64,000 nucleotides of DNA from Psammoneis japonica. Its lineage: Eukaryota. Location of the stretch: contig QPGO01000088.1 of NCBI GenBank assembly GCA_008632985.1, forward strand, positions 1-64,000, read 5' to 3'. Below, piece by piece: positions 6,355-61,099 of this stretch (the first letter of the stretch is position 1; the number at the start of each line of letters is the position of its first letter). The position numbers were made by a program, and so were the translations under genes. The notes under the pieces were generated by a model that saw nothing but the letters and a program-made list of their open reading frames with translations, searched no databases and was not told the DNA's origin.

Positions 6355-6506
6355 CAATGCAAGGCCAAAGATGGACATTTTGTGGGCAGTCTTGTCATGA
6401 TCAGGAGGCAATGAGAAAATGCAGACTGCACCCAATGCAAGGCCAAAGACGGACTTTTATGGGCAGTCTTGTCATGATCAGGAGGCAATGAGAAAATGCA
6501 GACTGC
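6355..6506. repeat. Tandem duplication, ~75-bp copies x2
   Basis: Copies at 6355-6429 and 6433-6506 (caatgcaaggccaaaga...gaaaatgcagactgc). Confidence 0.95.
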
Positions 6507-13232: not shown

Positions 13233-13262
13233 TTTTGTTTGTTTGTTTGTTTGTTTGTTGTT
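13233..13262. repeat. (TTTG)n microsatellite
   Basis: ttttgtttgtttgtttgtttgtttgttgtt seen directly. Confidence 0.85.
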
Positions 13263-39161: not shown

Positions 39162-40399
39162 GTTGTTGTTGTTGTTTTATATGGTTTAAATGGTTGTGCG
39201 TTCGTGCTCATAGTTTCAAGTTGGGGGACGTCTTCGGAAGTGAGACTGTCGAAGAAAGTTACGTAGATTTTGTACTAAAACAGTCTGTCAATCAGTGCGA
39301 TTGGGTATTTGGGACCTCTGGACAGATCCTACGTGTTTTTTTTTGCGTACAAATTGTACTGGGAAAACCCCAAACGCACTGGCGATCAGACCGCCTTCGA
39401 CGATCTCACTTCCAAAGACGCCCCCCAAAGTTGTTGAAATATGTTATGTATAATATGGCTCTCTCTCTCTACTTCGTGTCGGCGTCGATCCGGGGCTCCC
39501 ATCTACTGTATGTATGTAGGTATAATACCGGTACCGGTAGGGCCCTAGGACCCTACAGTAAGTACGTGCGTTTCGTGTGTGATCACTGCTTATGGAACCC
39601 GGATCCAAGGTTTTTTTGAAAAAGAGAAAAAAACCGTGGGCTCTTCGTCTCATTTCTAAATCATAGGAGTAGACTACTAGACATTTAAAAGCACACTAAC
39701 ACATCCGCTGAATGTTGGTGGTGTAGCCCTCTGTCGGCTAACAAACCCTAGCCGAAAGCTCGGCCACCAGCAAGGCTAGAACCCCAGTTGGATTCGGTTG
39801 CATTGGCCCATCGAGAACAGGCACCAGTGATTTGCATGGAACCCGGGCCCATGCCGCATGAGTTCGAATCACCAGCCTCTGTGGCTCCAGCCGATACAAT
39901 GGCATAGAAGAGCAACAGAGTTGCTCAAAGAGCTGAGATGCAACCGACGAGGTCCAAGCACGAGCCACTGGCCACGACACCCTTGCATCTGTGGCATCTC
40001 AACTGGGTGGGTGGGAGGGAAAGAAAAAACAACCAAAGGCTTGAATCCTTCAAAAGCCGTGACAAGACAATGCACAATTGCAGATGTTGTGGAGGATCTT
40101 CGTGCAGTTTCAAAGGTGCAACTTTTTATGAGACGATGTCAGAGTGAAACGGAGGGAGAGCGAACAAGTGTTTCTGAAACGAGAAACGAGCCACTTTTGC
40201 AATGAGAAGAGTGATTCGAACCCCAATGGTTGTTGACACCTTGACATTCTCGTTTTCCAAAAAGGGCTCTCCCTTTGCTTCTCATCTCAAATCACTGTAA
40301 AGTGTTGTGCTTGTCATTTGACAAGAGAATTCAACAAAAACAATTGCCGCAACAAACCGCACGACTGAGACACGAGTCAGTGACAAATGTCCAGTCGCA

Positions 40400-43300
40400 G
40401 TCCGCGACCAAGACACTCGACTCAGTGCCTGGTGAACCCGAAGGTGCAGATTGATCCAGGCCCCTGCACGCAGAAGGGAAGCAATGGGAGTGGTGGGTGC
40501 TTGCACAGTGGGTGGAGCTGTTTCACAAGTTCTGCGCGGTTGGGAGCGAGGGATGCAATGGGAAGGGAGGAAGCAACTCAAGCACAGGTGGTGGAGAGGT
40601 TGTTGACACTGGCAGCAATTTGGGCGGAGTGAATGCAGGATGGGTTGTCGAAGTCAAGGGGTTCACCAGATGCATCTGGGATGGGAGCAGAGCATGATTT
40701 GTCACAGAGGGTGTGTGCATGGAGCCGCTGCAGAAGAGAAAAAGGCAATGTGTGGTGGTGGTTGAAATCGGGATGCTGGAGTCCTCAGGGCATGGGTGGA
40801 GGACGAGGTGTTCAAAAAAAAAGAGGGTTGAAGGGTTGGGAAGCATCAACAGTGCACTGGACAATGTGGTGAAAAGCAAGGGTGACTTGAGGTTGGGAGG
40901 AGGGAGGCATTTGTGCCAAATGGAGGTGCAGAAAGGTGGCGGTGAAAAAGGGCTGGTGAGTTGAGTCACTGAAAGGAAGCTGCCCATTCAGGCAGCTCTT
41001 GGCATGGGCAGGATGATGCAATGAGTTGGATGTTGGTGGTTGTGCAAGGTTGATGGTGGGTGTTGCAAGTGCGGGTGTGCAGACAGGTGTCTTGAAGGCA
41101 CATCTTGCCGGTGCGTGGACAGCGACGACATGGGTGTAAATTGTGTTGCTGGAAGAAAGAGTCAGGTGTGGATCACAAGCTGCAATGTTCGTGCATGGAG
41201 GACAGATGTGTGCACACCAGCTTGGGGACTTGGGTCAGAGAGGCATCTGTTGGAATGCAAAAAGAGCAGTGTGCAAAGGGGCACGACCAATTGGCAGCCC
41301 CTGGCGGGGTGCGTGTGCCAACGGGCTCCATTTCTGGATGGTTGGAGAGTGCGGTGGGGTCTTGATTTTGTTTGGCAGCATTGCAGGCCAGTTCATTTCC
41401 CACATTGAGGTGTGCAGGTGTGGACCCATTGATCAAAGATGTTGAGGAGTTCACAGTCCCGCTGAGAGTGTTCAAAGTCCTTGTCAGATGGATCGGGTTG
41501 TTTTGTGTCATCAACAATGGCTGCAACTGTGGGGGGTGGGTTGGGATCATGGGTTTGGTTTCAGTGGTGTCGGCTTGGCCCATGGTGGTGTTGGATGAGT
41601 GTGTGGAGCCATCAAAGTCATGTGGGTGAGAGCATTTTTTGGTTGTTGGAGAGGGGAGGGGGGGCAGTCGGCAATGTGTGGAAACTGGCGTGGGTGCAGA
41701 TTGCCAGGAGGCTTCGAGAAAAGAGAGAGCTGTTTCCAAGAGAGTGCTGCAAGGTGGTTTTTCAGCTGCTTGTGCAAAGGATGCAGATGTGTGAGTGGGG
41801 GGGGGGGACAACAAAGGGGTGGGTTCTTGAGCAGTTCTTTGGGAAGGCCAGGGCAGAGATGAAGGGTGGAGCTCACAATGTCAACAATGGAAGGGGTGGG
41901 CAAGAAAAAGAGTTTGTGTTTGAATGGGGTGTTGTCATGGACAAGAAACATGGGGACAACACTGTGGAGGTCTGGAGCAGAGATGAGTTGGACACAATCA
42001 AAGGGTGTTGTGATGTCAAGGCAGCTGGCGAGGATGACGCACATGTGTTGGCTGTGTGTGCAGCAAGGAGGCAGACACCTGATTTGGGGAGGTTGGAAGT
42101 TTGTCTGGTGGGGGAGAAGCTGGGGAATTGCAGTGGCGCCAGATTCCAACATGGTCAAGAAAGGTGTCATGTTTGGAGAAGAGAGAAAGGTTGGGGTCTG
42201 AGTGGTTGGTCAGCAGGAGGGGTTTGATGTGGTTGTGAAGTTTTTTCAGGAGAAATTGGCGTGTGTGTCTGGATTGGCTGCATGTCTTGGGATCAGCACC
42301 GGCAAGGATTCTGCGGGCTTGTTTGGTGAAGGAGTTGCAACCCAGTGCAAGGAAGGAAATGCATCAAGTCTAAGGGTTGGGAGAAGCTGGGAGTTCTTTG
42401 GCATTTGGGGAGAGGAAATCTGAGCAGGAAGAGGTGGCGGAGTGAGGTTTGAAGTGATCAGGAGGGTGGAGGTGCCATTTTTGCATGGCTGATTGAAGGA
42501 CTTGATCACAGAAGAGATGGAAATCGAGTGGCTCATTGGAGGTGGCGGCAGTGAAAGACAGCTTCAAAGCAGGATGCCGCTGATTGTGGCGAGAACAGGA
42601 GCAGTGTTTGGTTTCAGAGAAGGTGATGTTGGCCACTTCACAGAGAATGAAAAGCTCACAAGTGGTGCGGTGCAGAGAGCAACATGAAGGATGGATCAAA
42701 CCCTTTGACATCAACAGCGGGCCCAGGTTTGTTGTGGGGTTGGCAGGATGGAGGAGCTGAAGGAGAAGTTTGATGGCAGTGGGAGATGGTGTGAAGTCAT
42801 CAGAAATGTGGGGAGCGTCAGTCTGCATCTTGGAGTGGGAGTCAGGCTGTGGGTTGGCATCTGAGTTGAGGGGCTTGGTGTTGAGAAAATGGTGGGTTTG
42901 GTGGAAGCAAAAGTGGAGGCAGAGACAGAGGAAGAGTTGAGGGAAGGCAGGTTTGAAAGGGAGGTGTGTGCACATGGGCAGAGATTTGGGTGGAGACTTG
43001 AGCAGAGACTCAGATGGGGACTTGGGCAGAGATTTAGAGCCAGGTGGTGATTTGAGGTCCAGCAAGGTGGCAGGGGTTGCAAGCAGGGGTTGCAAGAAGG
43101 GGCTGGGAGTCTTGGGAATCTTGGGTGCCATCCTGAAGAGATGGCCAGCTGGATTCATTGGAAAGGGAGGACACAGTGGAGAAGGGTGCAGAAAGCAAAG
43201 TTGAAATTGACGTCTTGGTGGATGCGTTGGGTTGGTTTTTTGTAAGTCATTGAAAAGAGAAGGCCATTTGGGAGCACAACTGGGTGGGTGTCAGTTTGGG

Positions 43301-43700
43301 CAGATGTTTGCAGGGGTGGGAAATTGGGGTTGTCAAGAGAGGGTGCAACTTGGAAGAAAAGGCTGTTGAGGGAGGGCCATTTGAGGTGTCACATTTGCAA
43401 TCGTGAGGGCCACAGCAGGTGTGTGGAAGGGGATCATGGGAGGAGGATGGTGACATGGGGCTGTTGCTTGTGTCACAACAGCTGTTGGGGGAATGACCAT
43501 GAGAAGGGTGTCGGGGCAGAGGAATTCGGAAGGGGCTGTTGATGGCATCAAGCAGGAGCGGTGCAGGGCCACACAAGTGTCGTGCATGATTGGATTGAAA
43601 ATGACTGAGTGGGTGGGCATGGTGTGTGTGGGGCTGCATTGCTGTTTGAGGGCAATTGAAGAAAGGAAAGAAAGTGAAGGGTTGGCACTTGAGGGCAGAA
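40400..43700 (-). mobile_element. Degenerate retroelement-like remnant with RNase H-like motifs
   Basis: Strong C-rich minus strand; FDGS near 41600 and PAHLNVGNELACNAAK near 41370-41420 resemble RNase H (DGS...GNELADxxAK). No RT core recognised; may be more than one element. Confidence 0.4.
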
Positions 43701-45384
43701 AGGATCAAAGAAAAGGGGGAGTTGTGAAGCCGTGCTGAGGTTGGAAATGATGAGGAAGATGGTGAAAACCAAAACAATGCAAAGGAACTGCCATGAGAAA
43801 AATGGTCCAAGGTGTGGCAGTGGGCAGGGAGGTCATTTTGGTGAGTGCAGTGAAGCACTGTTTGGCTGGGGAGCAAACCCCGTCGATGTTGTTTCAAGGC
43901 CATTGTTCTCATGTTTGCTGTTGGATCAGCCAGCTCATCAGTTGTTGTTGTGCGGTCCACTCTCTGCTGGTGCCGCACCACAGAGAAGAGGAAAAAAGAG
44001 GATGGGAGAGCAAGAGACAATGCAGTGCTCATGTTCTGCTGAGCATGCACAACACCCAGATGAAAATTTCTCAGGGACATTGCCAACAGATCCAATGACT
44101 CAATTTGGTCATTTCAAGTGTTCGTGCCAAGTCAAGATTGTGAGCATGACCGGAGCTGTGTGACGTGCAAAACCATTTGAGACACTCTTTCTTTGAAAAA
44201 CTTGCAATGTCCAAATGATGTCTTTTGGACATTTTGCTCATTTCCCACTCTGAGGTGGCACTGCGAGGGTGCAAAAGTGGGCCAGATTCTGCGCACGTGG
44301 GGACTGGCATCATGTTTTCTACACCAACTTGAGCCCTCTCCCAGATGATGGAAACTTGAACATTTCACATGACAAAGTGTCCGGGCCACTCAACTGCACT
44401 TCCCTCTGCTTGTTCTTTGAGAAAAACTGCAAGTTTTCATGCATTTTTGAAGAAATGCACTGAGTCCAATTAGAAAGGTGCCAAAATTGGGACGTTTGAG
44501 TTTTGCAGAGCTGCAGCAAACAACAAACTCATTCGTTTTGGTGCCAGCGTGGGATGCCATCTTTGTCAGTGGCTTTTTTGCTTTTAGTTTGGGTGGTGGG
44601 GGTGAGTTTTTTGGTGGCTCACTGGGTGGGGCATCAGGATCAGAGTTGCTCTCTGCCTCATCCTTGCTGGACAAAGACAATTTGCAGTCTCTGCACTTTC
44701 CTCTTGAAGCTGACATTGCTGTGCCCAAGCTTGCAAGCAGTTGAAAGCATTTTTTAACACTGAGCTTCTGCCACACATGAACCTTGTTTGTGGTCTGTCA
44801 CCTGCACTGATGTGCTCCCGCATCTTCTTTGTCACTGGAGCCCCAGAGTTCTGGCTTGCTGTCATGGATCCAATGGGTGGAGGCATGTCTGAGGGCCTTC
44901 AACCCACTGGCTTCCTTGGCATGTTTTCTGGCACTTGGAAGCCCTGCTTTGTTGCTGTGGGAGGGGCTCTTCTTGCAAGCTGATGGTGGCAATGGCAATG
45001 GTGAGAAGGCCTTCTTCTCCTTGCTTCATTTCAATCAAAGCTCCATTGTGCCATTTCAATTTGCTCTGTGTTTGTGCATGGTTTTTTGAAGAAGCAATGC
45101 CGGCCACAGCAACCATGGAAAATTCAATTTTAAAATTAGATCATGAGCAATTCTTGACAATTGTTCCCATTAAAAAGAAGAACATGCAATGAAAATGTGT
45201 GCTCATTTCAAAGTCATTCAGTGACTTGTAATTTCAAATGATTCTTCACAATCAATCCTGCCAAGCACAAGATTTAAAAAAGCACATGCTGGCAGCTGGA
45301 GTTTTCACACATGACACACTTCCCCCACAACAAGAGCGAAGACAACAAAAGAGAAATGAAAGCCTTGACAGAAGCAAGGTGCCA

Positions 45385-45600
45385 ATGATGCCTCCAAGGA
45401 AGAAGAAACTGCTGCAGTGGAAGGACAATCATGCTGGCACATTGCTCAAACAAGACCTGAAAAGTGGCGAAAATCCACTTTTAGAACAGGAGATGATGAG
45501 CACTGAGGACACACACCAATGATGACCCAAGTTTTGATGGATTGATTTTGAGAAATTCAAGGATCAGCTGGAAAAGGCCCAAGAGAAGGCAGATGCCAGA
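45385..45600 (+). pseudogene. Transposon-associated small protein remnant
   Basis: W..NHAGTLLKQDLKSGENPL....M..EDTHQ**PKF*WIDFEKFKDQL reverts to ..IYQRRPEFR..FKDRL by restoring only TA and CG dinucleotides. Resembles a repeat family I recall from diatom genomes. Confidence 0.4.
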
Positions 45601-46553
45601 GGCACACAAACAGTGGTGAAGTTGTTTTTGCTGTTAAGAAATCTTGACACTGAAAAGACTCATCAAAAATTGGCTTGTGTCAGTCACTAAAACACACCTA
45701 GTTGAAGTGACTGATGAAAGCCTGTTTTTGACACAATCAGTTGCAACAGCTGCAGAGCAAGAGCAAAGTCCTGAAACATTGGGTTCTTCAAGTGTTTTGC
45801 ATGACATGCATGGGCAAACCTCTCAACAGAAATCGGCAAATCATTTGAAAGATTTTCACATGCTTTTTGGCGGTGTGTCTTTGAGCAAATCCAAAGATCA
45901 ACACACACAGCCATTCTGATGACATTCAACTCCAATTCCATCTGCCCCCTTGTTCAAAACAAAAACAACAAATTGATGCGCGCACTGCAGCTGTTGATGA
46001 CAGTGAACCACAACCCAATTCTGCCAAAAGAAAGCAAGCTCATCTGCATGAGAAAGCCAGCAAGTCTCACAAGAAGCACAAGCAACCTTCTGAAGAGATC
46101 ATGCTTCATTCCAGGGTTCTTTCTGCTGACTGAACCTAAAGAACCAGAAGAAGCCATCAACACACCAGTGCTTCAAGGAATGATGGCATCATCTGTCCTT
46201 GAGAGAATGAGATCAAGGTCATGGAAGACAACATCTTGCTTCTTGATGAAGCTCTTTGCAGTGATGACCACAAAGGTGTCATCAACATGAACAAAGCTCA
46301 GTGGCATGCCACAGCTTGTGTGTTTGTTGAGCTTTGTTTTGACATGCCTCCTGAGGAGGAATGAGATGGTCAGAATGGAGCGACACCTGCAATGAAAACA
46401 AACCTTGGCATCTCCCCAACTTTGCACATCAAAGACATCTTGTGCAATGTCACCACCACCACAAAAATCACATTGAGTGCAATGGTGGCAGGATCATAAC
46501 AGTGCCATTGGCTGACCTTCAATTTTGTCTCTTGATTTGCCAGAAGCCAAGGT

Positions 46554-47048
46554 CATTGGCAACAATGTTGAAAGCAGACTTTCAATGCCCCAGACAGTTC
46601 AACTTTGTGATGAGCATTGGTGTGAGCAAGGGGAAACTGCGCCACAAGGGCTCCTGTTGACAACTTGACACAGCAGATGGGTGCCAAGGTGCAGAAAGTT
46701 AAGCTGCACAAAACAAGGGAGCAGAAATCCTGATTCTCCCTGGTCACATGAGTGCAATGCAATTGGACTTGCCAGTTGTTGGTCTGGTTGGAAATGGTTG
46801 ACATTGGCAACAATGTTGAAAGTGGCTTTTGGCACCCCAGACAGCTCAACTTTGTGAGACAAGCATCAGCGTGAGCAAGGGGAAACTGTGCCACAAGGGC
46901 TCCCATTGACAACTTGATGCAGTGGATGGGTGCCAAGGTGCAGAAAGTCAAGCCAACAAAACAAGGGAGCAGATGTCCTGATTTTTCTGGTCACATGAGG
47001 GCAGTGCAATTGGACTTGCCAGTTGTTGGTTTGGTTGGAAATGATTGA
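46554..47048. repeat. Tandem duplication, 248-bp unit x2
   Basis: Copies start at 46554 and 46802 (cattggcaacaatgttgaaag...ttggaaatg). Confidence 0.9.
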
Positions 47049-47539
47049 AGCACAAAAGAGAGCCAGCGGGAAATCCCAGACTGCTGGAATCCAGACAAGA
47101 TGCCCAAATTGAAACCAGAACAAATCGCACATTGGGACAAGATGCACAAAAAGTGCAGGTGTTCAGTTTCCACATGATGAAAATGGAAAAATTGATGTTG
47201 GTGATCATTGCATTGTTTTTGTGTTGCACTGTGCTGTGCAGTGTTGTGTTGCAATCCAACTGCACATTGATGTGTTGCTGTTGTCAAATGGGCAACACAG
47301 TGATGAACAAATCAAAGTTCCAAATGTCAGCACAAAAAAAGAGGCGCAACTGTGCTGTGGGAGCACCATCAAGAAGAGAGGAGATGGGCAAGATGGGCAT
47401 GTCGAATCTGCCTTGGAGCCATTTGCATGCTCAGGTTGCATCCCAATGTCCATCCCTGACACAAAGTCAAAAATTTGAAGTGAGACATGGTGAGTCAAGA
47501 GCTCAAAGCCTGATCCATTCTGGGCACACTTAACACACG

Positions 47540-48460
47540 AGGCTGGAGTGCTTTGTTGCGACAACAAACTTGCCAAGATCAACAAACTCGGTGACTCCAT
47601 AGAAAAAAGATTAAAAATCATGGCATTTCTTGTGTCAAGGATCTTGTGAATGCAGGTGAGCCTGCTCCTGCTTCTGTTGTTGCAAATGAAGACCAACTCT
47701 CCCTTCAATCTTTGTGCAAGTTCTGCAAAAAAACTGTCAACTGCATTGACAAAGATGCGCCACCTGAGTTTGACCATCACAAAGCCAAGAACCCACACCA
47801 GGCCAAATGCAGTGACAAGTGGGAGGACAAGACAATGAAGTCATTGGCTCTCTCCCCCTGCATCTGCACAACTGTCATGATTGGGCACATTGTGAAAGAG
47901 TGTGAGGAACATTGCAAAGGCAGACAGCACAAGGATGACTGGAACTTCTGTCATGATGCATTGTCATTGATGATGGCTGGGAAAACAATCAAGTGGAGAT
48001 GAAGGAGAAGGGCTGTCACAAGAGGTGCCTCTTGCCTGTGGATGGCCTCCAAATGGATGCGAGTGATGCAAGAAATGCACCTTGCACCCACTTGGAGATT
48101 TGCCAAAAATGATGACTTGGGACACATTGTTGAACAACGATCTCCACACCACAGTGGCTCGTCACATCATCTTCACATCAGACCAATGTGTGGGTCTTGG
48201 GATCTGTGAGGCAATCTTGAAAATAACTCAGTTGCCATTGACATGCCTCCAGCAAGTTGAAGAGCAGTGCTGTGTTTGATCTTGCGGCTCTTGAGCACAA
48301 TCATTGAATTTTCCCCAAGAAGACCACCAACAAACATGGCAAGAAATGGTGGGAAGGGTTGGAGGCAGAAGCTCTTCTGAAAGCGGACCTTGCAGATGGC
48401 ATCCATGAAATGATGAAACTGAAAGAGCTGTGGAATTCCGAGATGAGTGCAAAGAGTTCA
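47540..48460 (+). mobile_element. DDE transposase remnant (IS630/Tc1-like)
   Basis: WNFCHDALSLM..TIKW and PLGDLPKMMTWDTLLNNDLH resemble the HD and SPDxxPxD regions of Tc1/IS630-like transposases. Many stops. Confidence 0.5.
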
Positions 48461-48829
48461 AGCGGACATTTTTTGGGGACACTTTAATCAAGAAGTGCGT
48501 TGGTGAGTTTGTCAACTTTCAGAAGGAGAAGCAGAAGAAAAAGGATGTAAAACGAGCTGGGTTGAATGCCATTGACAACTGACAAGAAGGCTGCTTCATG
48601 TCCACCATGGGGAATGATGATGCCACAAGGAACACAACAAGGAGAAAACTGGAAGAGAGGATGAATTGGGAGATTTTCGGTGCAGTCCAATGAGAGGTCC
48701 AACCGCAACTGCAACAAATGGACAGCATCATGGTCATGGACCAAGAATGACCCTTTTCCTTCTCCAATTCGGGTGCCATGCCGAACCTCTTCAATGCTTC
48801 CTTTGACTGCAATCCAAGCATGTGGTGAA

Positions 48830-49720
48830 ACTCAGTTCACCATGCCTTCCTCCCACACCACTTTGGTGGAGCAAACTTGAAACAACCGCCACACACACAG
48901 TTGCAAGTCACATTGATGCTCTTGTTGCAGGAGAGAGAGAAGGAATCCACAGCAGAGTTCCCTTGAATTGTTGGCAACGTCCATTCCACCAACGGCTGCT
49001 GCTCCACAAGCCCTCACACGAACGAGATCAAGATTGCCATTGCTCATGCCAATGACGCTGAAAGCACTGCCATCAAACTTTTTCACGTTGGACACGTGGA
49101 GTCTTGAACAATGAGCTTGACAGGGTCGTTCCCGACCCTCGTCCCATTTCCTGCAACAGAATTGCCAAAACCGACATTGTTGACAATGGAGAGCATTCAA
49201 TGACTCCCTTGGTGGGATCACCATTGCCGCAAGTGAGAGTTCCACCTCCTCTGTTCCCCTCAATGGTCAAACCTGAAAAGAAAAACCCGTTGACCTGTCC
49301 ACAAAGATGCCGTGATGTCGCCGTTCTTGACAACAGAGTTGAAAATGCTGAGTTCTCCAAAATCGGATTCTGCAACAATGCTGGCCTGCTTTGTGTTCTC
49401 AATGGTGACAACCTTGAGCTTGGCTGCGCAGCCCCAACACCCAAAATCCATCCCTTCCTGCTCAACATCCTTGATGGTGGCATGTGAGATTTGGACCCAA
49501 TTGTCATAACCCTCTGGATCAATCCCTTCTCTTCTGGCACCATTGATGGTGACATGCTCCATCATGCACTTTGAAATTGCACCTTGAAGTTTCATCCCAT
49601 CATCTGCAGCTCCATCAATGGTGACATGCTCCATGACATGTGTTGTCTGAAAGGAACGAAACCTTGTCCCATCACCACCAGCTCCATGGATTTCAACATG
49701 GGAAAAGAAAAGAGGCAAAA
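48830..49720 (-). pseudogene. Right-handed parallel beta-helix repeat protein remnant
   Basis: Repeats HVEIHGAGGDG, HVTIDGAADDGM, HVTINGARREGI, HATIKDVEQEGM; frameshifted. Confidence 0.55.
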
Positions 49721-50243
49721 TGATGTCATCTGCGTTAAAACCAGTGATGCCATCATCTTTGACATTTTGGATGATTGCATGGGAGACAAAGACACCCTCT
49801 TCAGAGAAACTTGCAATGGCGATCCCATCATCAACGCAGTTCTCGATGATGCAGTTTTCAACTGCACAAGTGACAAATCAAGTGAAGACAACAATGAGGC
49901 TGAATCAGTTGCAGTCATTGTCATCATGAAAAGGACCGGACATGTTCATCAGAGTGCACGAAATGTTAAAAATGTGCAGATTCACATGATGACAATTTGT
50001 TGAAACATTGCAAAATGTTGTTGTCATGTGATGACAGGCCAACCTCTGGTTGCAAGTTTGGTGTGCCAATGTTGCAACAACTTGTTGAGAATTGTGCGTG
50101 CTGTTTTTCACCACATCCACATCACCATTTCTGCCTCCACCTTGTTGCCATGTGCCAATGCGTGATTGCATTGCCACACAAACCTTGGTTTGTTAATTTT
50201 CGTAAACATCATTTTAAACGAGAAAAACATTTCATCAGTTGGG

Positions 50244-51560
50244 TCAATTCCTTGTTGCATCTGCAGTGCAATGACCGAGTGCCATGTCAACTGTGTGCAC
50301 ATTTTCTTGCTGCAACTCTCTTAAACCAAGCTGACAATCATCATTGGACTCGTCTTCATTGGACTCGTCTTCATCGGATTCGTCTCCTCCGTCGTTCGTT
50401 TTTCCTTTTGCGCCTTCCTCCTGCTCATCGTCATTGCCATTGTCGTCCCTGCTGCTCTCCACCATCAGGCTGTTCATTGCCTTCACCTTCTCCGCATCAC
50501 CGGTTGGTGCTGTCTTCTTCTTCTTTTTTGCTTCTCTGGACTTCTTGTGCTCGCTTTTCTTGATCTCCGCATGCCACTTTTCAAACTCCTTGCCCTCCTT
50601 GGAGTCTCTGTCTTTCGTCACCTCTTTGCACAAATCGTTGAACCGAATGATTCCGTCATCTCCCCAAGACTCTTGTTGTTTCTTTGGCTTTGTGCACCGA
50701 GGGGCAGGCCTTGTTTCTTCGGGCTCCATTTCCTCACCCAATTCTTCCACCGCCTCCTCCTTGTTCCTGCATGCCCACACCTGCCAACAATTCTCCATGG
50801 CTGACAGTGCCAAAGCTTCGTCACCTGCCGCAAACAACTGTGAGACCTGTGCATTCCCAGTTTTGATGGTGCAACTCCATGCCTGCTTTTGCTTGGTTTG
50901 AGGTGGGATGTGATCACAGAACCACTTGCATGCCTGCTTGTTCCTTTGTTTGCCGCCAGTGACAGTGTCCAGGCTGAACGGTTCCCACGTCGGCACAAAC
51001 GGGACATCATTCTCTTCATTCTTGTCACGGCTTGACTTTTTCCTGTTTTGCTTTTTCCTCCTGACTGCCGCCTTGAGTTTCTTTTCTTTTCCTTTCCCTC
51101 TTCCTCAGTGACAATGCCTGTGTAGACAAAGCATCACCGTCATCTTCTTGTGAGATGCGTGCAACTCTCGAATCACACACATTGGTCACTTGACTTACGG
51201 GCCATTGCCTCCGCCCCAATGGCCGAACACACCGTGTTTCTGCAATTGTTGGTTTGCCTTTTTACCGCCTTTCATGCCCATTCCTCCCAAGTTCCTGACC
51301 AATTTGAAGTGTCCATGTTGCCACCAGCAATCTGTTTCTTGACAAACATTGAGATGCTCCCATTGCTTGCCAATTCTGACGGACTGAGAAACTTCACCTG
51401 TGGAAAGAGATCATTTCTAGCCACCTTCTCTGCTTCTGATTTCAATGCACCATGCGCTGCCTGCACACCTGTTCTCTTCAACACTGCCTGAAGTCTCGGG
51501 CTCATTGGCTTGACAGTCTCATTTTTCTTTCTCTTCTTTGCCGGTGGTGCTGGAGACGAC
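50244..51560 (-). pseudogene. Transposon accessory protein remnant (acidic tail; WxxDGIxRFNxL..V..DR motif)
   Basis: NLS-like PPAKKRKK, LFPQVKFL, DEALALSAMENCW, PRCTK..WGDDGIIRFNDLCKEVTKDR and an E/D-rich tail; split by TGA stops. Family recalled as associated with Plavaka-like elements (inference). Confidence 0.45.
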
Positions 51561-51974
51561 ATCTTGATCTTTGCACGGCAACAATGAGAGCAGTGTTGCT
51601 GTTTGACAGTGCAACCGTCATCTGGGTCATGTTGAGACAGCCAGCCACTCTGTTTTTCTCTGTGACATTGCATGGGTTGTTGTCAGCAACATTGAAATTT
51701 GAAAATGCATTTGCACATGACAATGAACAGTCCAACTTGTTTTTTGACATGGCTGTCATTGCGTTCCAACGGAGATGATGTCCTTCATTTTGACAGCAAA
51801 TAAAAAAGAACAATGTTCACTGTAAATGCCAGATAAAAAATCAAAATGCAGACACGTCATGCCTGCAAGAATCATCCAAATCTGGAAGACAATGTAATGT
51901 TTGCCATTTTCCCACCATTTTTTGTGTGTTGTTCTTCTTTTCCCTTCTCATCCACAAAGACCAGGACGACGAGC

Positions 51975-52275
51975 ATGAGTCTTGATGAAGGCCCTGTCAA
52001 CATTGACCAGAGAACCATTGGGCAACGGCATCAGCATGCAGACTTGGTCAGTTGCTGGCAGCTTGATCACAAACGAAACAACTGGCTTTCAATGCCTGAG
52101 AAGACCCAGCACTCACCCAAGTTGCGGGTTGTCCCTGTCAAAGCAATTGGGGACAATGTTTTGGTTTATGAAGAATGTCCAGGAGCAGTGGAAGCGCAAG
52201 AAAAGGCCCCATTTGTTTGGGCTGCACAGGACAGAAGGAAGTGTTGGTCAGATTTGTTTCTAAAATGGGGCGCAC
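51975..52275 (+). mobile_element. C-terminal fragment of a Plavaka-like transposase
   Basis: PKLRVVPVKAIGDNVLVYEECPG..VWAAQDRRKCWSDLF resembles remembered C-termini of Plavaka-type ORFs; catalytic part absent. Confidence 0.4.
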
Positions 52276-53404
52276 ATGTCAATCTGTCACTCACTCACAG
52301 TGATGTCACCTGACTCTTTCTTGCAAACATGATGAATTTGATCCTTTCAGAATCAGCAAAGTCATTGCGGTGCACGTGAAGCAGTGCGGCACGAGCACCT
52401 TCCGTTGCTTTTGTTCTGATGTCTTCTTCGGAAACTCCAAGACAAGCTTCTTCCTGATCGGAAGGCTTTCCCAACCACTGTTCTCGTTGTTCTTGGGTCA
52501 TGAGGTTGCTTGCAAAGAACACACTTGCACGGCTCTTTGCAGCATCCTTGTCCATTGTGCACATGTTGAACACAGCCAACAATTTCTTCCATTGTTTGAC
52601 AACCTGGAAGAAGGTTGCAAGAGTGGAGGGAATCACTGTGTCCCTCCCTTCTTCGTTTTTGGAGAGCAAGGCCCGAAGATCAGTTGGATTTTGGAAAAAT
52701 TGAGTCATCCAAAATGACTGTCGCACCACTCTCCATCTGGCATCCAGCAGCAGTCCAACATGATTTGGTCGAACCCATGATTGTCAAAATCAACAAGTTT
52801 CTCAAACTGCTGCTTGACTCTCTTGACGAAATCTCTTGCTTTCACATTGCAATTTAAGTGCAGATCATGATGTCCACCTTGGAGAACAACTGTTGGAACG
52901 ACGTTTGTGACTGTTTTGTTAGATTCCTCAAATGCCATTGCGCGGGCCTCATCTCACCTGTGTTGGTCGGACGACACCAAGGCCACCCCCTTCTCAGAGC
53001 ACAATTCTTGAGAAGACAGTTGCCTTGCATTGAGCGGACGGGTCATCCCCAACCACAGCACATTGTGTGTTTCCCCGTCAGTTTCGTTGCTTGTGAAACA
53101 ATCTCCCAAGTTGCCATGGTCCTCTTCACCCTCGGAGCAATGTGCAACTTGGTTGTGCTCATCGTCAATGGGCTCTTCGCTTTTGTCCTCTTCACCCATG
53201 CAAGTGGTTGGAAGTTCACTTGTTTTCTCGTCAATTGACTCCTCCTCGCAATCGTCACTTTTGTTCATTGTGAATGACAACAAATCACCGGCAGCCTTCT
53301 TCCTGTTAGAACGAGAAATCAATGTGACAATGTTGGCACAATCAGACAAAAAACAAATGTGATTGCCATGAAAAAGCAACCTCTCTTTGCCATTCCAGTT
53401 CGGC

Positions 53405-55708
53405 TCAAACTTCATCAATCGACACGAACGGGACTGGCTCCCATTCACACCTTCCAAACCACTTGATCATTGATTGCCCATCAGAGAACAAGAGCAACAG
53501 ATGCTGTCCACAACAAAAGACATTGCAGATTCCCATCTTTTCACGAGCCACACTCAGGTCACACAGCAAAGACTCTGGGCCATTCTTTCCACAGTCTTCC
53601 AAATCAAAATCACCCTCCATCCGTTCCAAGAGCAAATCGCGCTCCTCCACCGGGACCTTCATTTCCTCCATTTGCTTCGCCGCTCCCAACTTGGCTGCCG
53701 GATGGACAAGATTACGAAGGTCAGGGTGAGGATGGATCCCCGTGCCACACAGCATCAACATCTGCGTGGAGTTCATGCATCTGAACTCTCCACAATCAGC
53801 ACCTGCATGATCCCATGTTTGGACCACGGTTTGAAACATGTCCTCGATCACCTTGTGGTCAAACGTTGGCATGCCAACATTGTCATTGATCCAGTCGATG
53901 ACAACAACCAGTCCGCCAACAAGCAAATCCATCAAACCGTTGAGTTTCGTCCCACACTCTGCCGCGTGAACCTCCTCGAAATCGAGTCCCGGGCTCTGCA
54001 TGCATCGGTTGTTGCGATCCCCCGCAATGCTGCCGAATGGCCTCGCAGCTTCTCTGAAGCAATGAAGGACACAATCGCCAGCCATGAAAGGACGCTTCAC
54101 AGCATCTGTGTTGCACAACAAGCAGCAAAAATGGGAGAATCCGGTTTGACACCCAGCCACAACGGCGCAACGAAAGCAATCGTGTGCACCAACCTCATCG
54201 AGGTTGTCGATGATTGCCGAACAACCGCGCGAGAAATTAAAGTCCTTCACGATGGCAAAAGGATGACGTTTCCTTGGCATGACAATGACGGGGTGCTTGA
54301 CTGTGTTGGACGGAAGATTTGGCTTGCCAATTTCCTCTTCCACCCACACAGAGTGAGGGTCAAGGAAAAAATCTTTGATGTTTCTGTGGGTTGGCTTGCC
54401 CAACGGAGGACGACAAGGGCCGCGGCATCTCATCATTTCTGCAGCATGTGACAGATCAAGTTTTGCGAAATGACCATGCACACGCAATCAGAACTCGGCA
54501 CACCCATGCACTGAACTGACACAGTTTCCAGCATTGCCTTTGGATGCAGTGACAACCTTCAACGACCAAGAGCGACCAACAGCGTCTCGCAGTGACGAGC
54601 AAAGAGCACCAGTCTTGGTGCACCCATCCATGCCACAATCCTCTTTGTCAATGTGCAGCTCGGTTTTCGAACCAACGGATTTTTTGCGGGACGACGAGAT
54701 GCACTTAACTTGAATTTCCATGCCTTCCCTTCTAACATGCTTGGCTCCAACCATCTTACGGAGCTCAGCCGCGAAAAGACCATCGCGGCATGGGTCATGG
54801 AAGGAACGCATTTCTTTCAATGCAACAAGATTAATTTCGTCCTCGCAGAGTTGCACGGCGTCCAAGATTGAGGCTGTCATCAACTGCACATCCTTTGGAA
54901 GCTTCTCCCACTTGTCCCTGCCAAAGACAGCACCAGGCTTGTGAGTGGGTCCCACTTCAGCTGACTCACCGTCTGCGACTTCGTAATTCTGGCCGCAACA
55001 ACCAAAACAGATCCAACAGCGCAACTTGCATTCTGGTCCATCCCTTTTTTCGTTCGGCTCGCCATGTTCCAACACTGCACGGAGTGTTGACGACACACTG
55101 AATTGCAATCCAAAAAAGCATTTCTGATGCATCTTGTCCGTGTGTCGCAAATGAGTGACAACGTCGGAAAAATGAGAGGTTGACTGGGTTGGGTGAGCAA
55201 TCGCAACCATCAATTCTTGCGTCGGATCATTGGGAGCCATGCTGTTTTCAAATCCATGCACAAACTTGCGGAGGTGATTCACCAAGTGGAAATCAGAGAT
55301 GCTGTGGAGTGACTGGTGCTTGACACAGTTCCCCCCAAAGGAACCGGAAATGGGGGTTTCCTCAAAGATGACAAGGTGAGAATGTTGTGACTTCACCTCA
55401 CCCGGAATCGCAAATGGAGATGGTTCAGGAAACACTTTCACAAGCTCTTCTTTTGTGAAGTTGTCTGGCGGAGGAGGAGGCGGCTGACAAGTTGCACCGA
55501 GGGTCGGCCACTTTGTTTGGGAATGTTCAAATTGTTCCTTGAGAGTCGGCACATCTTGGAGAATCAGCGATTTGTTCTGAGAAACATCAGAAGGTTCACC
55601 ATCTTTGGGGTTTTTGAGACTGGGGCTTGAGGAGCAAAGGGAGGCGGCTAAAGAGGTGGCAAGAAGAACAGAAGAATTGGAGACAAGAAGAGGAGCACAA
55701 ACAATCAA
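53405..55708 (-). pseudogene. Large element-borne ORF (~766 codons, one in-frame TGA) with HxD and ExxLC motifs
   Basis: ORFs 54488-55708 and 53405-54487 abut in frame, separated only by TGA at 54488-54490. Only one Tyr in 766 codons. Confidence 0.6.
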
Positions 55709-55745
55709 TCAAACAATGTGATGGATTCATGCCATTTGGATTTTT

Positions 55746-56828
55746 TCATTTCCGAGCATTTTTCACAACGGATGGAATTGCACCGCCGATTTCTTTCTTC
55801 TTGTGCTGAGCGGCAAAGTCACGAAGCCTGGCTTTCCACATGGCCTCAAAACGATCCCTTGCAGCCTTGCTTTCACCGGAATCGTCAGCGGCAGAAACCA
55901 CACGATCAATTTTCACACATCTTAAAAGAGTCTCATCGACATGTGTTGCACGCATTTGTTCTCGCTTGACATCGAGCATGGCCAGTCGCATGGGCTTTTC
56001 CCAAGAATGTTTGTGTTGGTGGAACAACGACTTTACGAATTCAGGGAAGGACACAGGGCATTCGTCTTTGGTCGTCTCACAGTGACCAAGAGCCAGGAAA
56101 TTCTCCAAAAAGTTGATGTAAGTCGATGTCTCGTCACATTCGCTGAACAGGGAGTGCAGCCAACAATCGCAATCACCATTCCTTTCAGGTGCGCATGGCA
56201 GAATCTTGTCACAAAGAATCAAAAAACCAATGTGAGGGCATTGCGCGTAACGCAAAACCTTCCCTTCAAAACTTCTCAGCTCAATGTGCTTGACAAGTGG
56301 CTCTCCCTTTGGGTCGCACAATCCGGGATCATGGAGAAGCTTGTGCAACATGGATGTCTTTGCCATCATGTTGGTTGCAATGTCTGTTGATTTTGCCGTG
56401 TCACCGACGACTTTCATGTCCTCCACTTTGGGAGCACAGCGATGCTCCAACGCATGAGGATGTTTGGCGCCTTGACTGGAACAACTCCATCCTTTTGCAG
56501 AAAGAAAGTGCAGCAAGCTCTTGCACCCAAGTTCCTTTGCAACAATGCAGTTCACAGCCATCAGCTCTACAAAAAAATGAGGTCTGCCCTTTGACTTTTG
56601 CCACACATGGGCAAGCGCGATCCAATTCGGAGAGGGATCATAAGTGGAATCGCGGTGAAACTGAACCTTGGATTTCACTGTCTTGATTGTCGCTTTGACG
56701 CAGCTCCGCTCATTGCTGTCCATCACTCCAAAACCATTGGCAAAGAGAGATTCAAGTGCGGCCTCCTCGAGGCAGGAATCATTGTTGTCTTGCGACAGAG
56801 AGGCGACCGACAGGTCACGCGGCGCCAT
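55746..56828 (-). pseudogene. Element-borne hypothetical protein
   Basis: Open frame from MAPRDLS.. (~360 aa) with protein-like composition, same strand as the downstream ORFs; no family recognised. Confidence 0.4.
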
Positions 56829-56886
56829 GGTTGCTGTTCCAACACCAAAAAATCTGGTTTCTGTAGAAATGTGCCAGAGTGGTGTG

Positions 56887-57022
56887 TGGGAGAAGTCACA
56901 TGCACGCCTGGTGCGATTTGGAGTTTTAAACACAAAAACCTGCCAGACGCGCATGTGACTTCTCCCAGGGAAATCCCACAACCTGCCAGACGCGCGTGTG
57001 ACTTCTCCCAGGGAAATCCCAC
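56887..57022. repeat. 43-bp direct repeat x2 plus a 25-bp inverted partial copy
   Basis: aacctgccagacgcgc(a/g)tgtgacttctcccagggaaatcccac at 56937-56979 and 56980-57022; tgggagaagtcacatgcacgcctgg at 56887-56911 is its reverse complement with 2 mismatches. Confidence 0.9.
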
Positions 57023-58204
57023 GTGAGACCACACCGGGAAAGGGCAATGCGGAGTGTAGAATTGATGGAAGAAAATGTTGTGCGGAACAGCATCAGGAGA
57101 AAGGGTGCATGTGCTGGAAAACAACATGGATTTCTACATGCGCGCCAAGGTGCGTGAAAAACACATGGGTGCCTTCAAGTGATGCATGCAAACAACAATG
57201 AAGAAACATTCGGAAATGGAGACAGCACAGAGAGAAGTCAGAAACATGGATCCAAAACAAAGTGACACAACAGAAAAAAAAACAACAACAACAAGAGATG
57301 AAGGCGACGGCGACGGGATCAATGAAAAAGAAGGATTCAGATGGAAAGACGCCAGAGACGGTGAAAAGAGGCGGCGCCAAGACGAGGAAGGAAGAGAAAA
57401 ATGGGACGGGCAAAATGAAGAAAGACAAAAAGAAGCCGACAACATGACGTCAAGAGGGGAGCAGCGATGCGATTCAGCGTTTCGAGGGACCTCTTCCTCT
57501 TGATGATGTTCACCCAAATGCAAGAAATGCAGTGTGGCTTTTTTGGAACGGTGACGAGGAAACATCCAACGCGGCAGCGGCACATTTGAAATTCTTGCAA
57601 GAGAGCGGACAAGACACATGGAATGAAGAGGACGATGCGGACGACTGGGCAAATTGGAGCACAGTTGTTGATCAAATGATCAGTGCACACTTTGCATGAT
57701 GAAAATTTCATTGCATGCAATTGCAATGTTTGGCTTGTCGTCAAAGATCGTCAGTTGTTGTGAAAAAGGCAGAGCACAAAAATTAAAAAACATCTGTGTT
57801 CAAACATGAAGAACAGCAGGAGATTGATGATCAGCTAAATGACAAAAACCGTCATGTGCAGACAAGCAGATTTTACAATGTGGCAACATGTTTTTGTCAT
57901 GTGTGCAGACATTGCAACATCGTGCACTCTGATGTTGCAGCCACCGCACCTTTGTTTCCACCTTGAAGCCCAAGGCAATCAGCACCTGACCCAGGCACAT
58001 CAGAACCATTCCAGTTTCCCAACATCTTGAAACCCTTGCAATCGACGTTCGCTCCCGGCATGAACTCGAAGGCAGCCCCATCATCCACCTTGAGGTCAAC
58101 GCAGTCAATGTTTGATTTCAAAATGCAGTTTCCAGCCAGCAGGGTTGCAGTCTTTGGCCATTGTCACAGTTGGCTCTGCATTGCAAACGGGCAATGAATG
58201 CTTT

Positions 58205-58294
58205 GAACTCTTCAAAGTCTTTGAAATCTTTTTTCCACTGGATTTGCCAGAACTCTTCAAAGTCTTTGAAATCTTTTTTCCTCTAGATTTGCCA
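58205..58294. repeat. Tandem duplication, 45-bp unit x2
   Basis: gaactcttcaaagtctttgaaatcttttttcc..gatttgcca at 58205 and 58250. Confidence 0.95.
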
Positions 58295-61099
58295 GACTTG
58301 AGCTTGAGATTTCTGTGATGTTGCCATCCAGCTTTTGCGGTGCCGTGCTCTTCTTTGGGTGATTCTTCGTGACGCTCATCGCCCTTGCAACTCTCAACCT
58401 TGGTTGACACCCATTCTCCAAACTCAGCCTGTCAAACAACAAAACGATCGACCGGCATTTTTTCAAAAGACAACAGCAAGAATGTAATGGATGAGACGCT
58501 TTGCTTTGGTTGTTTGGCCATTCACGCATTGGATGAGTCCTTTCATTGGATTTTCCGATTTGATGACAGCAGACTGGACTCTGCTGCAACAAGGTTGGCC
58601 TGATCCAGTGCTTCAGAGATGCTGGGCTTTGTCTTGTCCTTCCTTTTTTCACAGCAAGTGCTTGTGAACATCAGCAAGAATGTGAGTTTTCAGTCCATTG
58701 ACAATGACAGCATCAAGTTGCAACTTTGCAGCCACAGAGAACTTGAGCTTGTTGTCCAATTCACACTCGGTGTCCTCCCCATGCATTTGAAGCAAGCATC
58801 ATCACACACTTCCACGGTCTTGCTTGCAAAGCACCACACAAAAAGCTGGAACTCTCTTTTGCGAATGTCTCCTTGTTCTTGCCTGAGATGGCAATGATTG
58901 GTGGGTGCAATGGAAACAATGCTCAACATGTCTGGTTGTCGACTGAACGAGAACCAGCTCTGTCTGTGAAACAAAGAACCGGACAGTCAGCAAAGTGGCA
59001 CATGGATCCGCAAGCGTTGGAGATGCAACTTCAACAGTTGCACACAATCAGCAGCATGCCACGTGGGGATCCAAGATGATCAATTTTGCTCTGCTTGAAA
59101 GTTCAAGATGTGGAGCCAGTCACAACCTTGAATTTGAAAAGGCTCTTGTGCATCATCCCTGAAGACCCAGCAAGTCTCATGGCTCACCAGAAGAAAAGGA
59201 CATGAAAAAAACCTGTGGTGCACATGGCCATGGCGCAACGTCTGCCACGCCGTGTCATGCACGTCTTGCTTGATCAACTGTGCTGGTGCAGCAGACTGAG
59301 CACATTGCAACACTCTCTGCCGGGGGGCAACTTTGTTGTCCATCTCATTGTGGCAGTGCAAAAGCAGTCGTGGATGATGCCAAAATAAAGAACAAAAAGG
59401 TTTGGTGGCAAATTAAGATGTGGAGGCCACACTCCAGCAGACAAGACAAAGCACAAAGTGCAGCTCTTGCGTGTGTCAGTGAAACGATCTAAAATGTGCG
59501 AGCATTTTTGAAAGACACCAGGAGAGAAGATGGAGGACCAGAACAAAAAGAAGATCTGCTCATCTTTGATCATAAAAAATTCAAGAAACAGGCAGCCCCT
59601 GCATTGAGCCCCCATTGGCTGTAACAAGAATGGTGTGGAGCTTGTGGCAACAGAGTGTGGGTCAGGGATGGCACACCTCACAAACTGTTCTTGATGGGTT
59701 TGTTCTCTTTGCAAATCTTTCACACCACTGCAGACAACAACAGCAGGCAAAAACTGCCAGGCAAAAGACAGCAGCAGTGAGCCCCCCTCCCCAGCAGGTG
59801 TTTGTTCAAGCTGCCCAGGTGTGGAGTGTGATGAAGGCAACCCAGTCAGCGGGATCAACCAAGGTGTGCACCTGGCAACTGCGCCTCTGCTTCAGAAATG
59901 CAGCTCTCACATGCTGGCATTTGCCTCACATTTTTTTCTGCACCCTCACATGCCATGGTGGGGAGCCAGCCTGGCATGCATGACACCTCTGAGCTGAGAG
60001 TGAAATGCGCTGTGGTGCTGAGCAAAAAATTGTTTGAATTCTCACCCGCGTCCATTGTTTTCTTGCTGTCTTGAGTTGCACTTTGGGTGCCAGAGACTCC
60101 CTTGAGCTGAATCACCCCCCAAGGATGAGAGACAGCATGTGGCACATGACACAACCAGCAATCTATCCACACATGGGATGGTGTCTCAGACAGAGTGCTC
60201 AGCAAAGAGTCTCTTCTTGCAAGTGCAAGAAGAGACTCTCTGCGGTGTGTGGCAATGCTGCACTTTTTTAAAAGTCTTTCACAAGCTGGCTGCCCAGGCC
60301 AAAATCTGGTGAGAAAATGAGAGTGCAGACGGGGCTGCAGGAGAGGTCGCGCTCAGCTCACAGAGTGGAGTTTTGCGCTGGCTGTTGCTGGCAGTGGTGG
60401 TGGTGGTGCCTGGGCCATTGTGCTGGATCGAGGTGATGCCAACCACACAACAACTGGTCCTGCACTCAGAAACCAAAGTGATGGCTCCAAGACATGTGTG
60501 GTGCACAGCCGTCATTGGGCATGCCAAGCTCTGAAAAAAGCCAGGGTGCCATCAACGCAGCAGGGTCATCTCCAAGCAAATGCTTGCGCAGACAAACAGA
60601 AAGTCAAACAGATTGCTGGTCAGACACTCCTTGACTTTTTTAATCTTGCTTGCTTGTTTTGTTTCCCTTGCCTACAAAATCTCTGCCTGCCCAGGAGAAA
60701 TCAGAGAAAAATCGCCATGATTTGGACGGGACAATGAAACCCGAGGTGTAAGTCGTGAGGTTGGTGGTGCACCGGTGCTGTAGGAATAGCGGCCAGACGG
60801 CGAGACTCCAGAAGGAATCTATGGGCACAACATCGTACGAGCGATGGTGGTGTTCGCATAACATAAATTTATATTAATCCCGAATATAGAAGATAAATCA
60901 TAAATTTCAGAAAAATTCAGAAAGAACCAACACCACACAACAACGCCGCTCGCCAATGGCAGCATGTCGACGACGTCGTCCGGAACTGCCGACGACTGTT
61001 TCAGGAGAGCCACTTATCGATGTCCATATTAATAGACTTGGGAATTCTCTCACCCTTTTCGTTGGCATTTGGATCGGGCGTTTCACCACAGACATGGAC

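Follow-up and report, generated by a model that had tools for sequence, protein, structure and literature searches.

Why should a stretch of eukaryotic DNA lose nearly all of its tyrosine codons and nearly all of its TAA and TAG stops, on both strands, so that its open reading frames (ORFs) lengthen? The question is raised by 64,000 nucleotides from Psammoneis japonica (positions 1 to 64,000 of contig QPGO01000088.1, assembly GCA_008632985.1; hereafter the window), in which positions 45385-54660 carry a dense track of Cys- and His-rich ORFs that are almost free of Tyr. The best explanation for the whole, to which a probability of about 0.8 can be given, is a process acting on DNA in bounded, gene-free blocks, by which TpA dinucleotides became TpG or CpA, the losses of Tyr and of stops being by-products. 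Its core, namely that DNA in silent or repeat blocks was hypermutated in situ by A:T to G:C changes specific to TpA, is very likely.

On the forward strand of 45385-54660, TAA occurs 24 times where 175 are expected and TAG 7 times where 144 are expected, against 270 TGA (144 expected). The six frames together (18,548 codons) hold 43 TAA, 12 TAG and 505 TGA, and Tyr makes up 0.08% of the six-frame translation, with Cys at 5.64% and His at 4.98%; in the gene-bearing region 16001-40000, used for comparison, Tyr stands at 2.40%, Cys at 3.62% and His at 3.20%. The frames contain 39 open runs that are at least 100 codons long, about eight times the mean of 4.7 in 20 mononucleotide shuffles. Depletion of Tyr and stops on this scale is far beyond chance. 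An earlier reading of the letters alone (the sequence-only reading) had proposed that TAA and TAG stops were erased and junk ORFs lengthened, and both the six-frame counts (55 TAA and TAG against 505 TGA) and the excess of long open runs bear it out. Its figure of one Tyr in 766 codons at 53405-55708 is likewise confirmed: two minus-strand ORFs, 53408-54487 (360 aa, no Tyr) and 54491-55708 (406 aa, one Tyr), are parted by a single in-frame TGA. They belong to the large gene of a many-copy unit (vide infra), whose 1215 codons include 4 TAY (Y being a pyrimidine), no ATA, 59 TGY and 59 CAY; the 2716 codons of host ORFs include 60 TAY, 22 ATA, 54 TGY and 65 CAY.

At the level of dinucleotides, TpA in 45385-54660 has an observed/expected ratio (O/E) of 0.05, TpG (1.76) and CpA (1.60) are enriched alike, and CpG is reduced to 0.41, while ApT (0.89), ApA (1.24) and TpT are ordinary. 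Such a composition would be produced if TpA were converted to TpG or CpA by A:T to G:C transitions on either strand, in which case ATA would become ACA or ATG, TAG would become TGG or CAG, and TAA would become CAA or TGA. Because few new stops arise from these changes, frames stay open, and a dense track of Cys/His-rich ORFs is left. The depletion is deepest for the trinucleotides TAT and TAC, whose density in the blocks is 0.03 and 0.04 of that in the DNA outside (0.08 for TAG and 0.22 for TAA), so that dead genes lose their Tyr to Cys (TGY) or His (CAY).

The TpA-poor state reaches beyond 45385-54660, all of which is contained in a sharp-edged block of 20.7 kb (block 2; Table 1), from which some 95% of the expected TpA is gone. 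In 1-kb bins, TpA O/E is 0.00-0.11 across approximately 2001-16000 and 40001-60300, and 0.38-0.92 elsewhere in the window. The bin preceding block 2 has a TpA O/E of 0.77 and the following bin (61001-62000) one of 0.63, with 0.29 in the bin that holds the right edge (60001-61000); within block 2, CpG O/E per bin is 0.05-0.82, TpG 1.29-2.10 and CpA 1.48-2.51. The other block, block 1, has the same signature with a stronger loss of CpG and a six-frame Tyr content of 0.06%. The approximate edges of both blocks were placed by the positions of surviving TAs, and across them the binned TpA O/E jumps between about 0.05 and 0.5-0.9 over a few hundred bases. G+C is 0.45-0.53 within the blocks and about equal outside. 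The genes between and beside the blocks are ordinary eukaryotic ones (CASP/CUX1, an ABC transporter, an amine oxidase, TFIIH Tfb4 and an annexin), and the DNA between the blocks remains in the 0.38-0.92 range, so that the loss is confined to discrete regions.

The direction of change is given by homologues of the unit's large gene. An exhaustive protein search with the minus-strand ORF 55749-57092 returned 39 homologues, the best of which (P0002, 5.2% Tyr) is 61% identical over 360 aligned positions in 363 alignment columns. The 19 aligned Tyr of P0002 correspond in the window to 6 His, 5 Cys, 3 Phe, 3 Tyr, 1 Arg and 1 Ile; the changed His and Cys sites use CAY and TGY codons, and the window's three Tyr all align to Tyr. 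Against P0003, 24 aligned Tyr are represented by 8 His, 4 Cys, 6 Phe and no Tyr among the window residues, and against P0001, 19 aligned Tyr by 6 His, 3 Cys, 5 Phe and, again, no Tyr. Both Ile to Thr changes relative to P0002 are ACA codons, and two of the three Val to Ala changes are GCA. The conversions that the sequence-only reading had put forward, TAY to TGY or CAY and ATA to ACA, are strongly supported by these alignments.

A leave-one-out comparison of the C-terminal domain finds Tyr in the window at none of the 11 columns in which it is conserved (they hold 3 His, 3 Cys, 3 Phe, 1 Pro and 1 Ile), whereas among the remaining 284 conserved columns 152 are kept (Fisher p=0.0003); seven homologues treated in the same way keep 7-11 of 11-13 conserved Tyr columns. 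Trp is retained by the window in five of five columns and Gly in 22 of 32. In the N-terminal domain, conserved Tyr is kept in 0 of 5 columns versus 65 of 132 for other residues (p=0.06). The DNA of 12 relatives (L001-L012) has a TpA O/E of 0.47-0.69, with Tyr at 2.5-4.7% in the ORFs that carry the match and at 0.0-6.3% across all listed ORFs; since TpA and Tyr are ordinary in this DNA, the family is not natively TA-poor.

Some relatives depart from this norm. Two contigs from metagenomes in which the unit's gene has distant relatives (L013:1-4723 and L014:1-5582) have TpA O/E of 0.31 and 0.27, with 500-bp bins at 0.07-0.52, TpG and CpA at 1.2-1.7, and Tyr at 0.0-2.7% in their ORFs (0.6-2.1% in the matched ones); these look like partly TpA-erased copies in other organisms. 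In four public predicted proteins of the N-domain family (P0006, P0027, P0011 and P0013), columns with conserved Tyr are occupied by His or Cys: in P0006 one of five is kept (the others including H, H and C) and in P0027 two of six (with C, C, C and H). Public sets thus appear to contain mutated copies that were taken for genes, as expected from the suggestion in the sequence-only reading that gene predictors could be misled.

The peptides from which that reading had started fared unevenly. All are present, namely DTHQ (45508-45519, +, followed by TGA TGA), FCHDALSLM (47946-47972, +), PRCTK (50688-50702, -), ENCW (50784-50795, -) and DGCTK (54614-54628, -), although of the five ancestral motifs proposed for them only one proved verifiable. 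This is DGCTK, the counterpart of the family consensus GYTKT, in whose Tyr column the homologues have YYWYYYY and the window has C. The derivation of ENCW from ENYW finds no support, as the sole homologue that covers the site reads NHW, with His and not Tyr; eight columns upstream of NHW/NCW in the same alignment, LYTW of that homologue (L009) faces ACKW in the window, a change of Tyr to Cys. For FCHD, PRCTK and the DTHQ string with its two stops and PKF, no homologue was detectable in Pfam, homologue and IMG/VR searches. Intact homologues have Tyr, and not Cys or His, at the conserved positions that could be compared. The 20.7-kb extent, the loss of CpG, the greater resistance of TAA and the presence in the block of a transposon-like many-copy unit are additions to what had been noticed.

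Both DNA strands have been hit, since within one gene 14 Tyr to Cys sites (A to G on the coding strand) are matched by 13 Tyr to His sites (A to G on the other strand). There is also a preference for sequence context. Among 123 surviving TAs, 35 are in TTAA, which is 8-fold over-represented, and 100 are in TTAN or NTAA; ATAC, GTAT and GTAC are represented by none. Where the TA has a single A/T flank, products in which the changed A stands before A occur two to three times less often than those that arise from the opposite strand (excess per kb: ATGA +3.3 vs TTGT +7.6, CTGA +1.6 vs TTGG +5.1, GTGA +3.2 vs TTGC +8.5). An A before A has therefore been largely spared, which makes Tyr codons the best substrate and TAA the worst. 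The four surviving Tyr codons of the unit's gene all have T before them, which fits this 3'-neighbour rule.

Evidence on timing is provided by a 247-bp tandem duplication in block 2. Its copies differ at 32 of 247 aligned positions, 26 of them by transitions, and the differing dinucleotide sites comprise seven CA versus TG, two CG/TG and one CA/TA, a pattern which indicates that the copies were mutated independently, in place, after they were duplicated. A purine/pyrimidine-collapsed self-comparison of the window revealed no further internal repeats.

CpG decay (CG to TG or CA) is present in the TpA-erased blocks as well, and explains none of the TpA loss. At 53-58 kb, CpG O/E is 0.68-0.82 where TpA O/E is 0.03-0.11; the two losses are uncoupled there, so that CpG decay is separable and slower. 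It is marked in the unit's gene by four Arg (CGY) to Cys (TGY) changes relative to P0002 and by one CGA to TGA stop.

The TpA-free sequence recurs in sequencing data. In low-copy parts of block 2, Logan contigs of one sequencing run (X1) match the window at 98.6-99.3% (5 of 748, 4 of 575 and 19 of 1398 letters differ). Ancestral DNA with about 42 TA per kb would give far more differences, and the contigs must therefore be TpA-free too. The k-mer contigs have an even depth of about 55 in the low-copy parts. No RNA run was listed as carrying this sequence. Over 44000-48400, 45 of 3,890 letters differ in the low-copy block contigs (about 1.2%), mostly by transitions, and a contig from the annexin region (62000-62900) differs at 0 of 901 bases, so it may be that the erased block carries higher polymorphism.

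Part of block 2 consists of one copy of a many-copy unit of about 7.7 kb. On 44000-62900, 6136 contigs of run X1 were placed, and their summed word depth is 3,900-26,500 over 49.7-57.9 kb, where most bins on either side have 60-110. Summed depth is not equal to copy number, but there are many diverged copies. In two contigs, 57708 is joined to 50036 by way of 37 letters resembling approximately 50000-50035 with TG/CA swaps, from which it follows that the unit stands head to tail elsewhere; its ends are known only roughly, from this joint, and no long inverted repeat was seen there. The sequences at 44.6-49.7 kb and 58.5-60.4 kb have low-copy depth, yet they are equally TpA-free.

The large gene of the unit can be reconstructed by comparison with P0003 (1135 aa), residues 71-400 of which match 56774-55740 and residues 503-1133 of which match 55411-53438 (E 1e-83). 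The two ORFs of the C-terminal domain also match P0001. As P0003 spans all three ORFs of the window, they represent one gene of about 3.4 kb, from an unnamed family. Near 55709-55748 the frame is briefly broken, perhaps by a small intron, since there is a similar break in the metagenome relative L004. Other copies have CGA (Arg) at the TGA that splits the C-terminal domain, which identifies it as a CpG to TpG nonsense change private to the window copy.

Three eukaryote-like metagenome relatives with a G+C of 0.49-0.50 (L004:71-3823, L009:145-6944 and L010:358-6054) have a three-gene order in common with the unit, in which a convergent ORF of about 1300 aa (1296 aa in L009) comes after the gene for the N- and C-terminal domains. 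In the window, only the end of this ORF is recognisable, as a C-terminal relic of some 80 residues; hmmsearch with a profile of the three Plavaka-like ORFs of the relatives also detects it (E 1.6e-10) and finds nothing else, the FCHD region included. The 1296-aa ORF has Atlas feature scores of 0.98-0.96 to clusters in which 29-100% of members carry PF18759, and of 0.92 to a PF02992 cluster, while an hmmscan of this ORF against Pfam gave no match to PF18759 or PF02992 at E up to 10. By language-model features only, it looks like a Plavaka-type (CACTA-like) transposase, and the 7.7-kb unit is probably what is left of a DNA transposon of the Plavaka/CACTA-like kind, together with accessory genes, a reading that should be treated as a lead.

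Other searches with the unit and its family were negative. Pfam had nothing relevant for 13 family members, or for 30 members at E up to 1, and no match for the neighbouring ORFs of the metagenome relatives; PHROGs had no relative of the unit's gene; and neither the C-domain alignment nor ORF 47595-47999 retrieved a relative when scanned against IMG/VR. A homologue search with ORF 50247-51104 (-) was likewise empty. For the model of the N-terminal domain (predicted local distance difference test, pLDDT, 79), Foldseek found nothing in the PDB at E<=0.001 and the best Z in a wide VIA search was 3.7; for that of the C-terminal domain (pLDDT 72), Foldseek found no fold match, and PDB sequence profiles gave 0 matches for both domains. 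ADDT was considered for the large gene and rejected, with an Atlas score of 0.76 that is below the lead threshold and has no backing from Pfam.

Table 1. Coordinates of the features discussed, on the numbering of the window
Feature	Position	Strand	Basis
TpA-erased block 1	2005..16286		TpA O/E 0.00-0.08, CpG O/E 0.02-0.38
TpA-erased block 2	39906..60640		TpA O/E 0.02-0.11 in 1-kb bins
247-bp tandem duplication	46552..47048		Tandem Repeats Finder (TRF) period 247, 2.0 copies, 85% matches
Right-handed beta-helix ORF, low-copy, TpA-erased	49263..49877	-	Pfam PF13229, E 1.1e-8
Many-copy unit of about 7.7 kb, one copy	49999..57708	-	Contig depth, end joint, shared gene order
Third-gene relic of the unit, holds ENCW	50772..50981	-	L009:7649-7975:+, tblastn E 2.8e-6, blastp 5e-8
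Relic of the last ~80 residues of the convergent ORF	52008..52259	+	tblastn E 2.6e-7, 2.5e-5, 1e-3
C-terminal domain of the unit's large gene	53438..55708	-	Family P0001, P0003, P0047-P0051; holds DGCTK
In-frame TGA splitting the C-terminal domain into two ORFs	54488..54490	-	16/16 contigs G at 54490, window A
N-terminal domain of the unit's large gene	55749..56828	-	P0002/P0003 family, without Pfam

The remaining ORFs of the blocks are mostly without annotation. A Pfam search of 187 ORFs from the two blocks gave a single match, to Beta_helix: block 1 had none in 25 ORFs of at least 120 aa, and the sets of 27 ORFs from block 1 and of 48 and 72 ORFs from block 2 yielded the beta-helix alone. 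That ORF has 1 Tyr in 205 aa (0.5%) and a depth of 74, about the single-copy level. No reverse transcriptase, RNase H or integrase domain was found by Pfam in the 187 ORFs, although mutated proteins may escape hidden Markov models.

G+C-biased gene conversion was rejected because TpA is lost and ApT, ApA and TpT are not, with G+C unchanged. It is hardly credible that the DNA, native or foreign, always avoided TA through selection or a bias of the donor and underwent no conversion: TpA is mildly low in most genomes, including the host part of the window (O/E 0.4-0.9), but near-invariant Tyr columns have become Cys or His in the window copy only, the DNA of relatives is ordinary in TpA and Tyr content, the halves of the local duplication resolved the same sites differently, and the gene is broken. 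Base modifications cause systematic miscalls in some long-read chemistries, and TAs that are present in the cell might have been misread if silent chromatin carries modified bases. Such an artefact is given some room by the fact that no run was found besides the one from the assembly's likely source sample; it is nevertheless very improbable, as run X1 reproduces the TpA-free sequence in the low-copy parts, and as misreading would not give frame breaks, a private CGA to TGA stop, pseudogene decay or diverged tandem copies. Partial TpA loss is seen, moreover, in metagenome contigs from other studies (L013 and L014), and the signature has been measured with Illumina data as real de novo mutations in another alga, as reported in a preprint on Bigelowiella natans (Mettrop et al., bioRxiv 10.64898/2026.01.13.699255).

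An A-to-I editing of transposon RNA by enzymes of the ADAR or ADAT type, fixed by reverse transcription and re-insertion, would agree with the mobile appearance of the many-copy unit and with the preference of such enzymes for a 5' U, which is mentioned in the Discussion of that preprint (bioRxiv 10.64898/2026.01.13.699255). One gene has been hit equally on both strands, however, and low-copy DNA and the beta-helix pseudogene are affected too; the erased state runs unbroken for 20.7 kb over unrelated sequences up to sharp edges, the 247-bp copies diverged in place, and the ORFs of the blocks lack a detectable reverse transcriptase or integrase, all of which makes this route most improbable. 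A thymine chemistry at TpA, such as oxidation or a modified T that mispairs with G and leads to T to C, is unlikely, although the sequence itself does not argue against it: TpA is palindromic, T to C on one strand is A to G on the other, all counts fit equally, and the context rule can be restated as protection of a T that is preceded by T. No sequence feature favours it, and the sole published proposal for the signature, that of adenine deamination, is a hypothesis in the preprint itself.

DNA-level hypermutation of TpA remains the preferred reading, and several points weigh against it or narrow it. The process is known here from its footprint, and because TpA is self-complementary a process that changes T leaves an equal footprint, so that the two chemistries are inseparable by sequence. 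Run X1 is one sample from one study, of unrecorded library type and possibly the source of the assembly itself, which makes it weak as independent support. Given the low-copy DNA that the block also holds, direction by repeats is no more than a possibility. Of 13 differences from the window that all contigs share in the unit, at least 7 involve CpG and none TpA (among the variants listed, 40 of 652), so that TpA loss may have come either before or after the amplification of the unit. With regard to context, the nine converted Tyr codons preceded by T became 5 Cys and 4 His where the rule predicts mostly Cys, and the estimates take non-block DNA as a stand-in for ancestral composition. Finally, CA/TG double differences can also stem from ancestral CpG.

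If the hypermutation reading is correct, the agent could be a DNA adenine deaminase that converts A to inosine, for which G is read; such an enzyme would require T on the 5' side, would dislike a 3' A, and might be targeted to silenced or repeat chromatin as a genome defence. Adenine deamination is the likeliest chemistry, though a tentative assignment, somewhat short of an even chance.

Several further features of the window were recorded. Between the erased blocks, 23096-25048 (-) holds a host gene with ankyrin repeats and a 2OG-Fe(II) oxygenase domain (Pfam E 1.5e-10). Within block 2, 41001-44000 is strand-asymmetric, with G at 38-39% and C at 13-15% (GC skew +0.4 to +0.5), 124-139 TG per kb versus 69-83 CA per kb, and about equal A and T; the asymmetry may reflect a G-rich element or a one-sided mutation. 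A pair of 125-nt inverted repeats that are 92% complementary (881-1005 / 1778-1902) adjoins the left edge of block 1, and another pair (9-48 / 799-838) lies outside that edge. Both have an ordinary, high TpA content, and they may belong to an unmutated small inverted-repeat element next to erased DNA.

If the process is real, a second lineage has a natural, targeted A:T to G:C hypermutation of DNA, here run to completion, and the case for such editing as a genome defence outside animals and fungi is strengthened. [quoted passage not shown] Under that same doubtful proposal, mobile or silent DNA would be disabled by missense changes, mainly the loss of Tyr, without stops, and TpA would be rewritten to saturation. 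The context rule TAY > TAG >> TAA would then be a fingerprint by which the enzyme could be identified, and a natural chromatin-acting DNA adenine editor would be of interest for base editing. There is also a cost for annotation, in that dead DNA keeps long, Tyr-free, Cys/His-rich ORFs which gene callers accept, while the mutated proteins escape Pfam (one match in 187 ORFs). TpA O/E per 1-kb bin would, if the process is real, be a simple map of silent chromatin in such genomes.

Among known systems, CpG decay by deamination of 5-methylcytosine has its likeness in the blocks in the CpG O/E of 0.41, in TGY from CGY and in CGA to TGA, but it cannot remove TpA. In RIP, which is known from Neurospora and other ascomycetes, C:G to T:A changes fall mainly at CpA, creating TpA and many stops and lowering G+C. 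The window has undergone the reverse: TpA is lost (0.05), G+C is unchanged (0.45-0.53), stops are erased and ORFs lengthen. RIP also acts on duplicated targets, and while the 7.7-kb unit is many-copy, the low-copy sequences on either side of it are TpA-free as well. The likeness to RIP (cf. PMC7296669) lies in transitions in a dinucleotide context that riddle non-genic or repeated DNA and kill genes, and in sharp domains. ADAR and APOBEC footprints in retroelements (PMC4866542, PMC3197674) are similar in that transitions are clustered in mobile-element copies as a deaminase defence; they are strand-specific, tied to RNA or cDNA, and not known to bring a dinucleotide down to 5% of expectation, whereas the window is two-stranded (14 vs 13, where RNA hyper-editing would restrict A to G changes to the transcribed strand) and its loss does not involve a retroelement.

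A literature search produced one relevant paper, the preprint on B. natans, whose supplementary tables might list further taxa or contexts; the diatom papers that came up do not treat TpA loss. In mutation-accumulation lines of B. natans, according to that source (bioRxiv 10.64898/2026.01.13.699255), an integrated giant virus and a virophage together gained 231 mutations, of which 230 were A to G or T to C; the GC-biased changes were all on TpA, these de novo changes were restricted to viral DNA in the genome, and the rate was about 1000 times the background. Clusters depleted in TpA and enriched in CpA and TpG are described elsewhere in the same genome, and an ADAT2-type deaminase is proposed as the agent (bioRxiv 10.64898/2026.01.13.699255). 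There are differences from the window. The B. natans process was seen live, with a TpA Rho of 0.45 in its main target, and the window has a footprint near saturation (O/E 0.05); viral insertions are the target there, and a transposon-like many-copy unit together with low-copy DNA, for which no viral relatives were found, is the target here; and the window, from a host of a different lineage, is also depleted in CpG and has a visible 3'-neighbour effect, TAA being resistant. In both cases, A:T to G:C changes at TpA give TpG or CpA according to the strand, discrete regions are affected in a genome that is otherwise normal, and many of the affected ORFs are without annotation. The signature in the window, known from its footprint, matches the TpA-restricted local hypermutation of B. 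natans, a kind described thus far in that one preprint.

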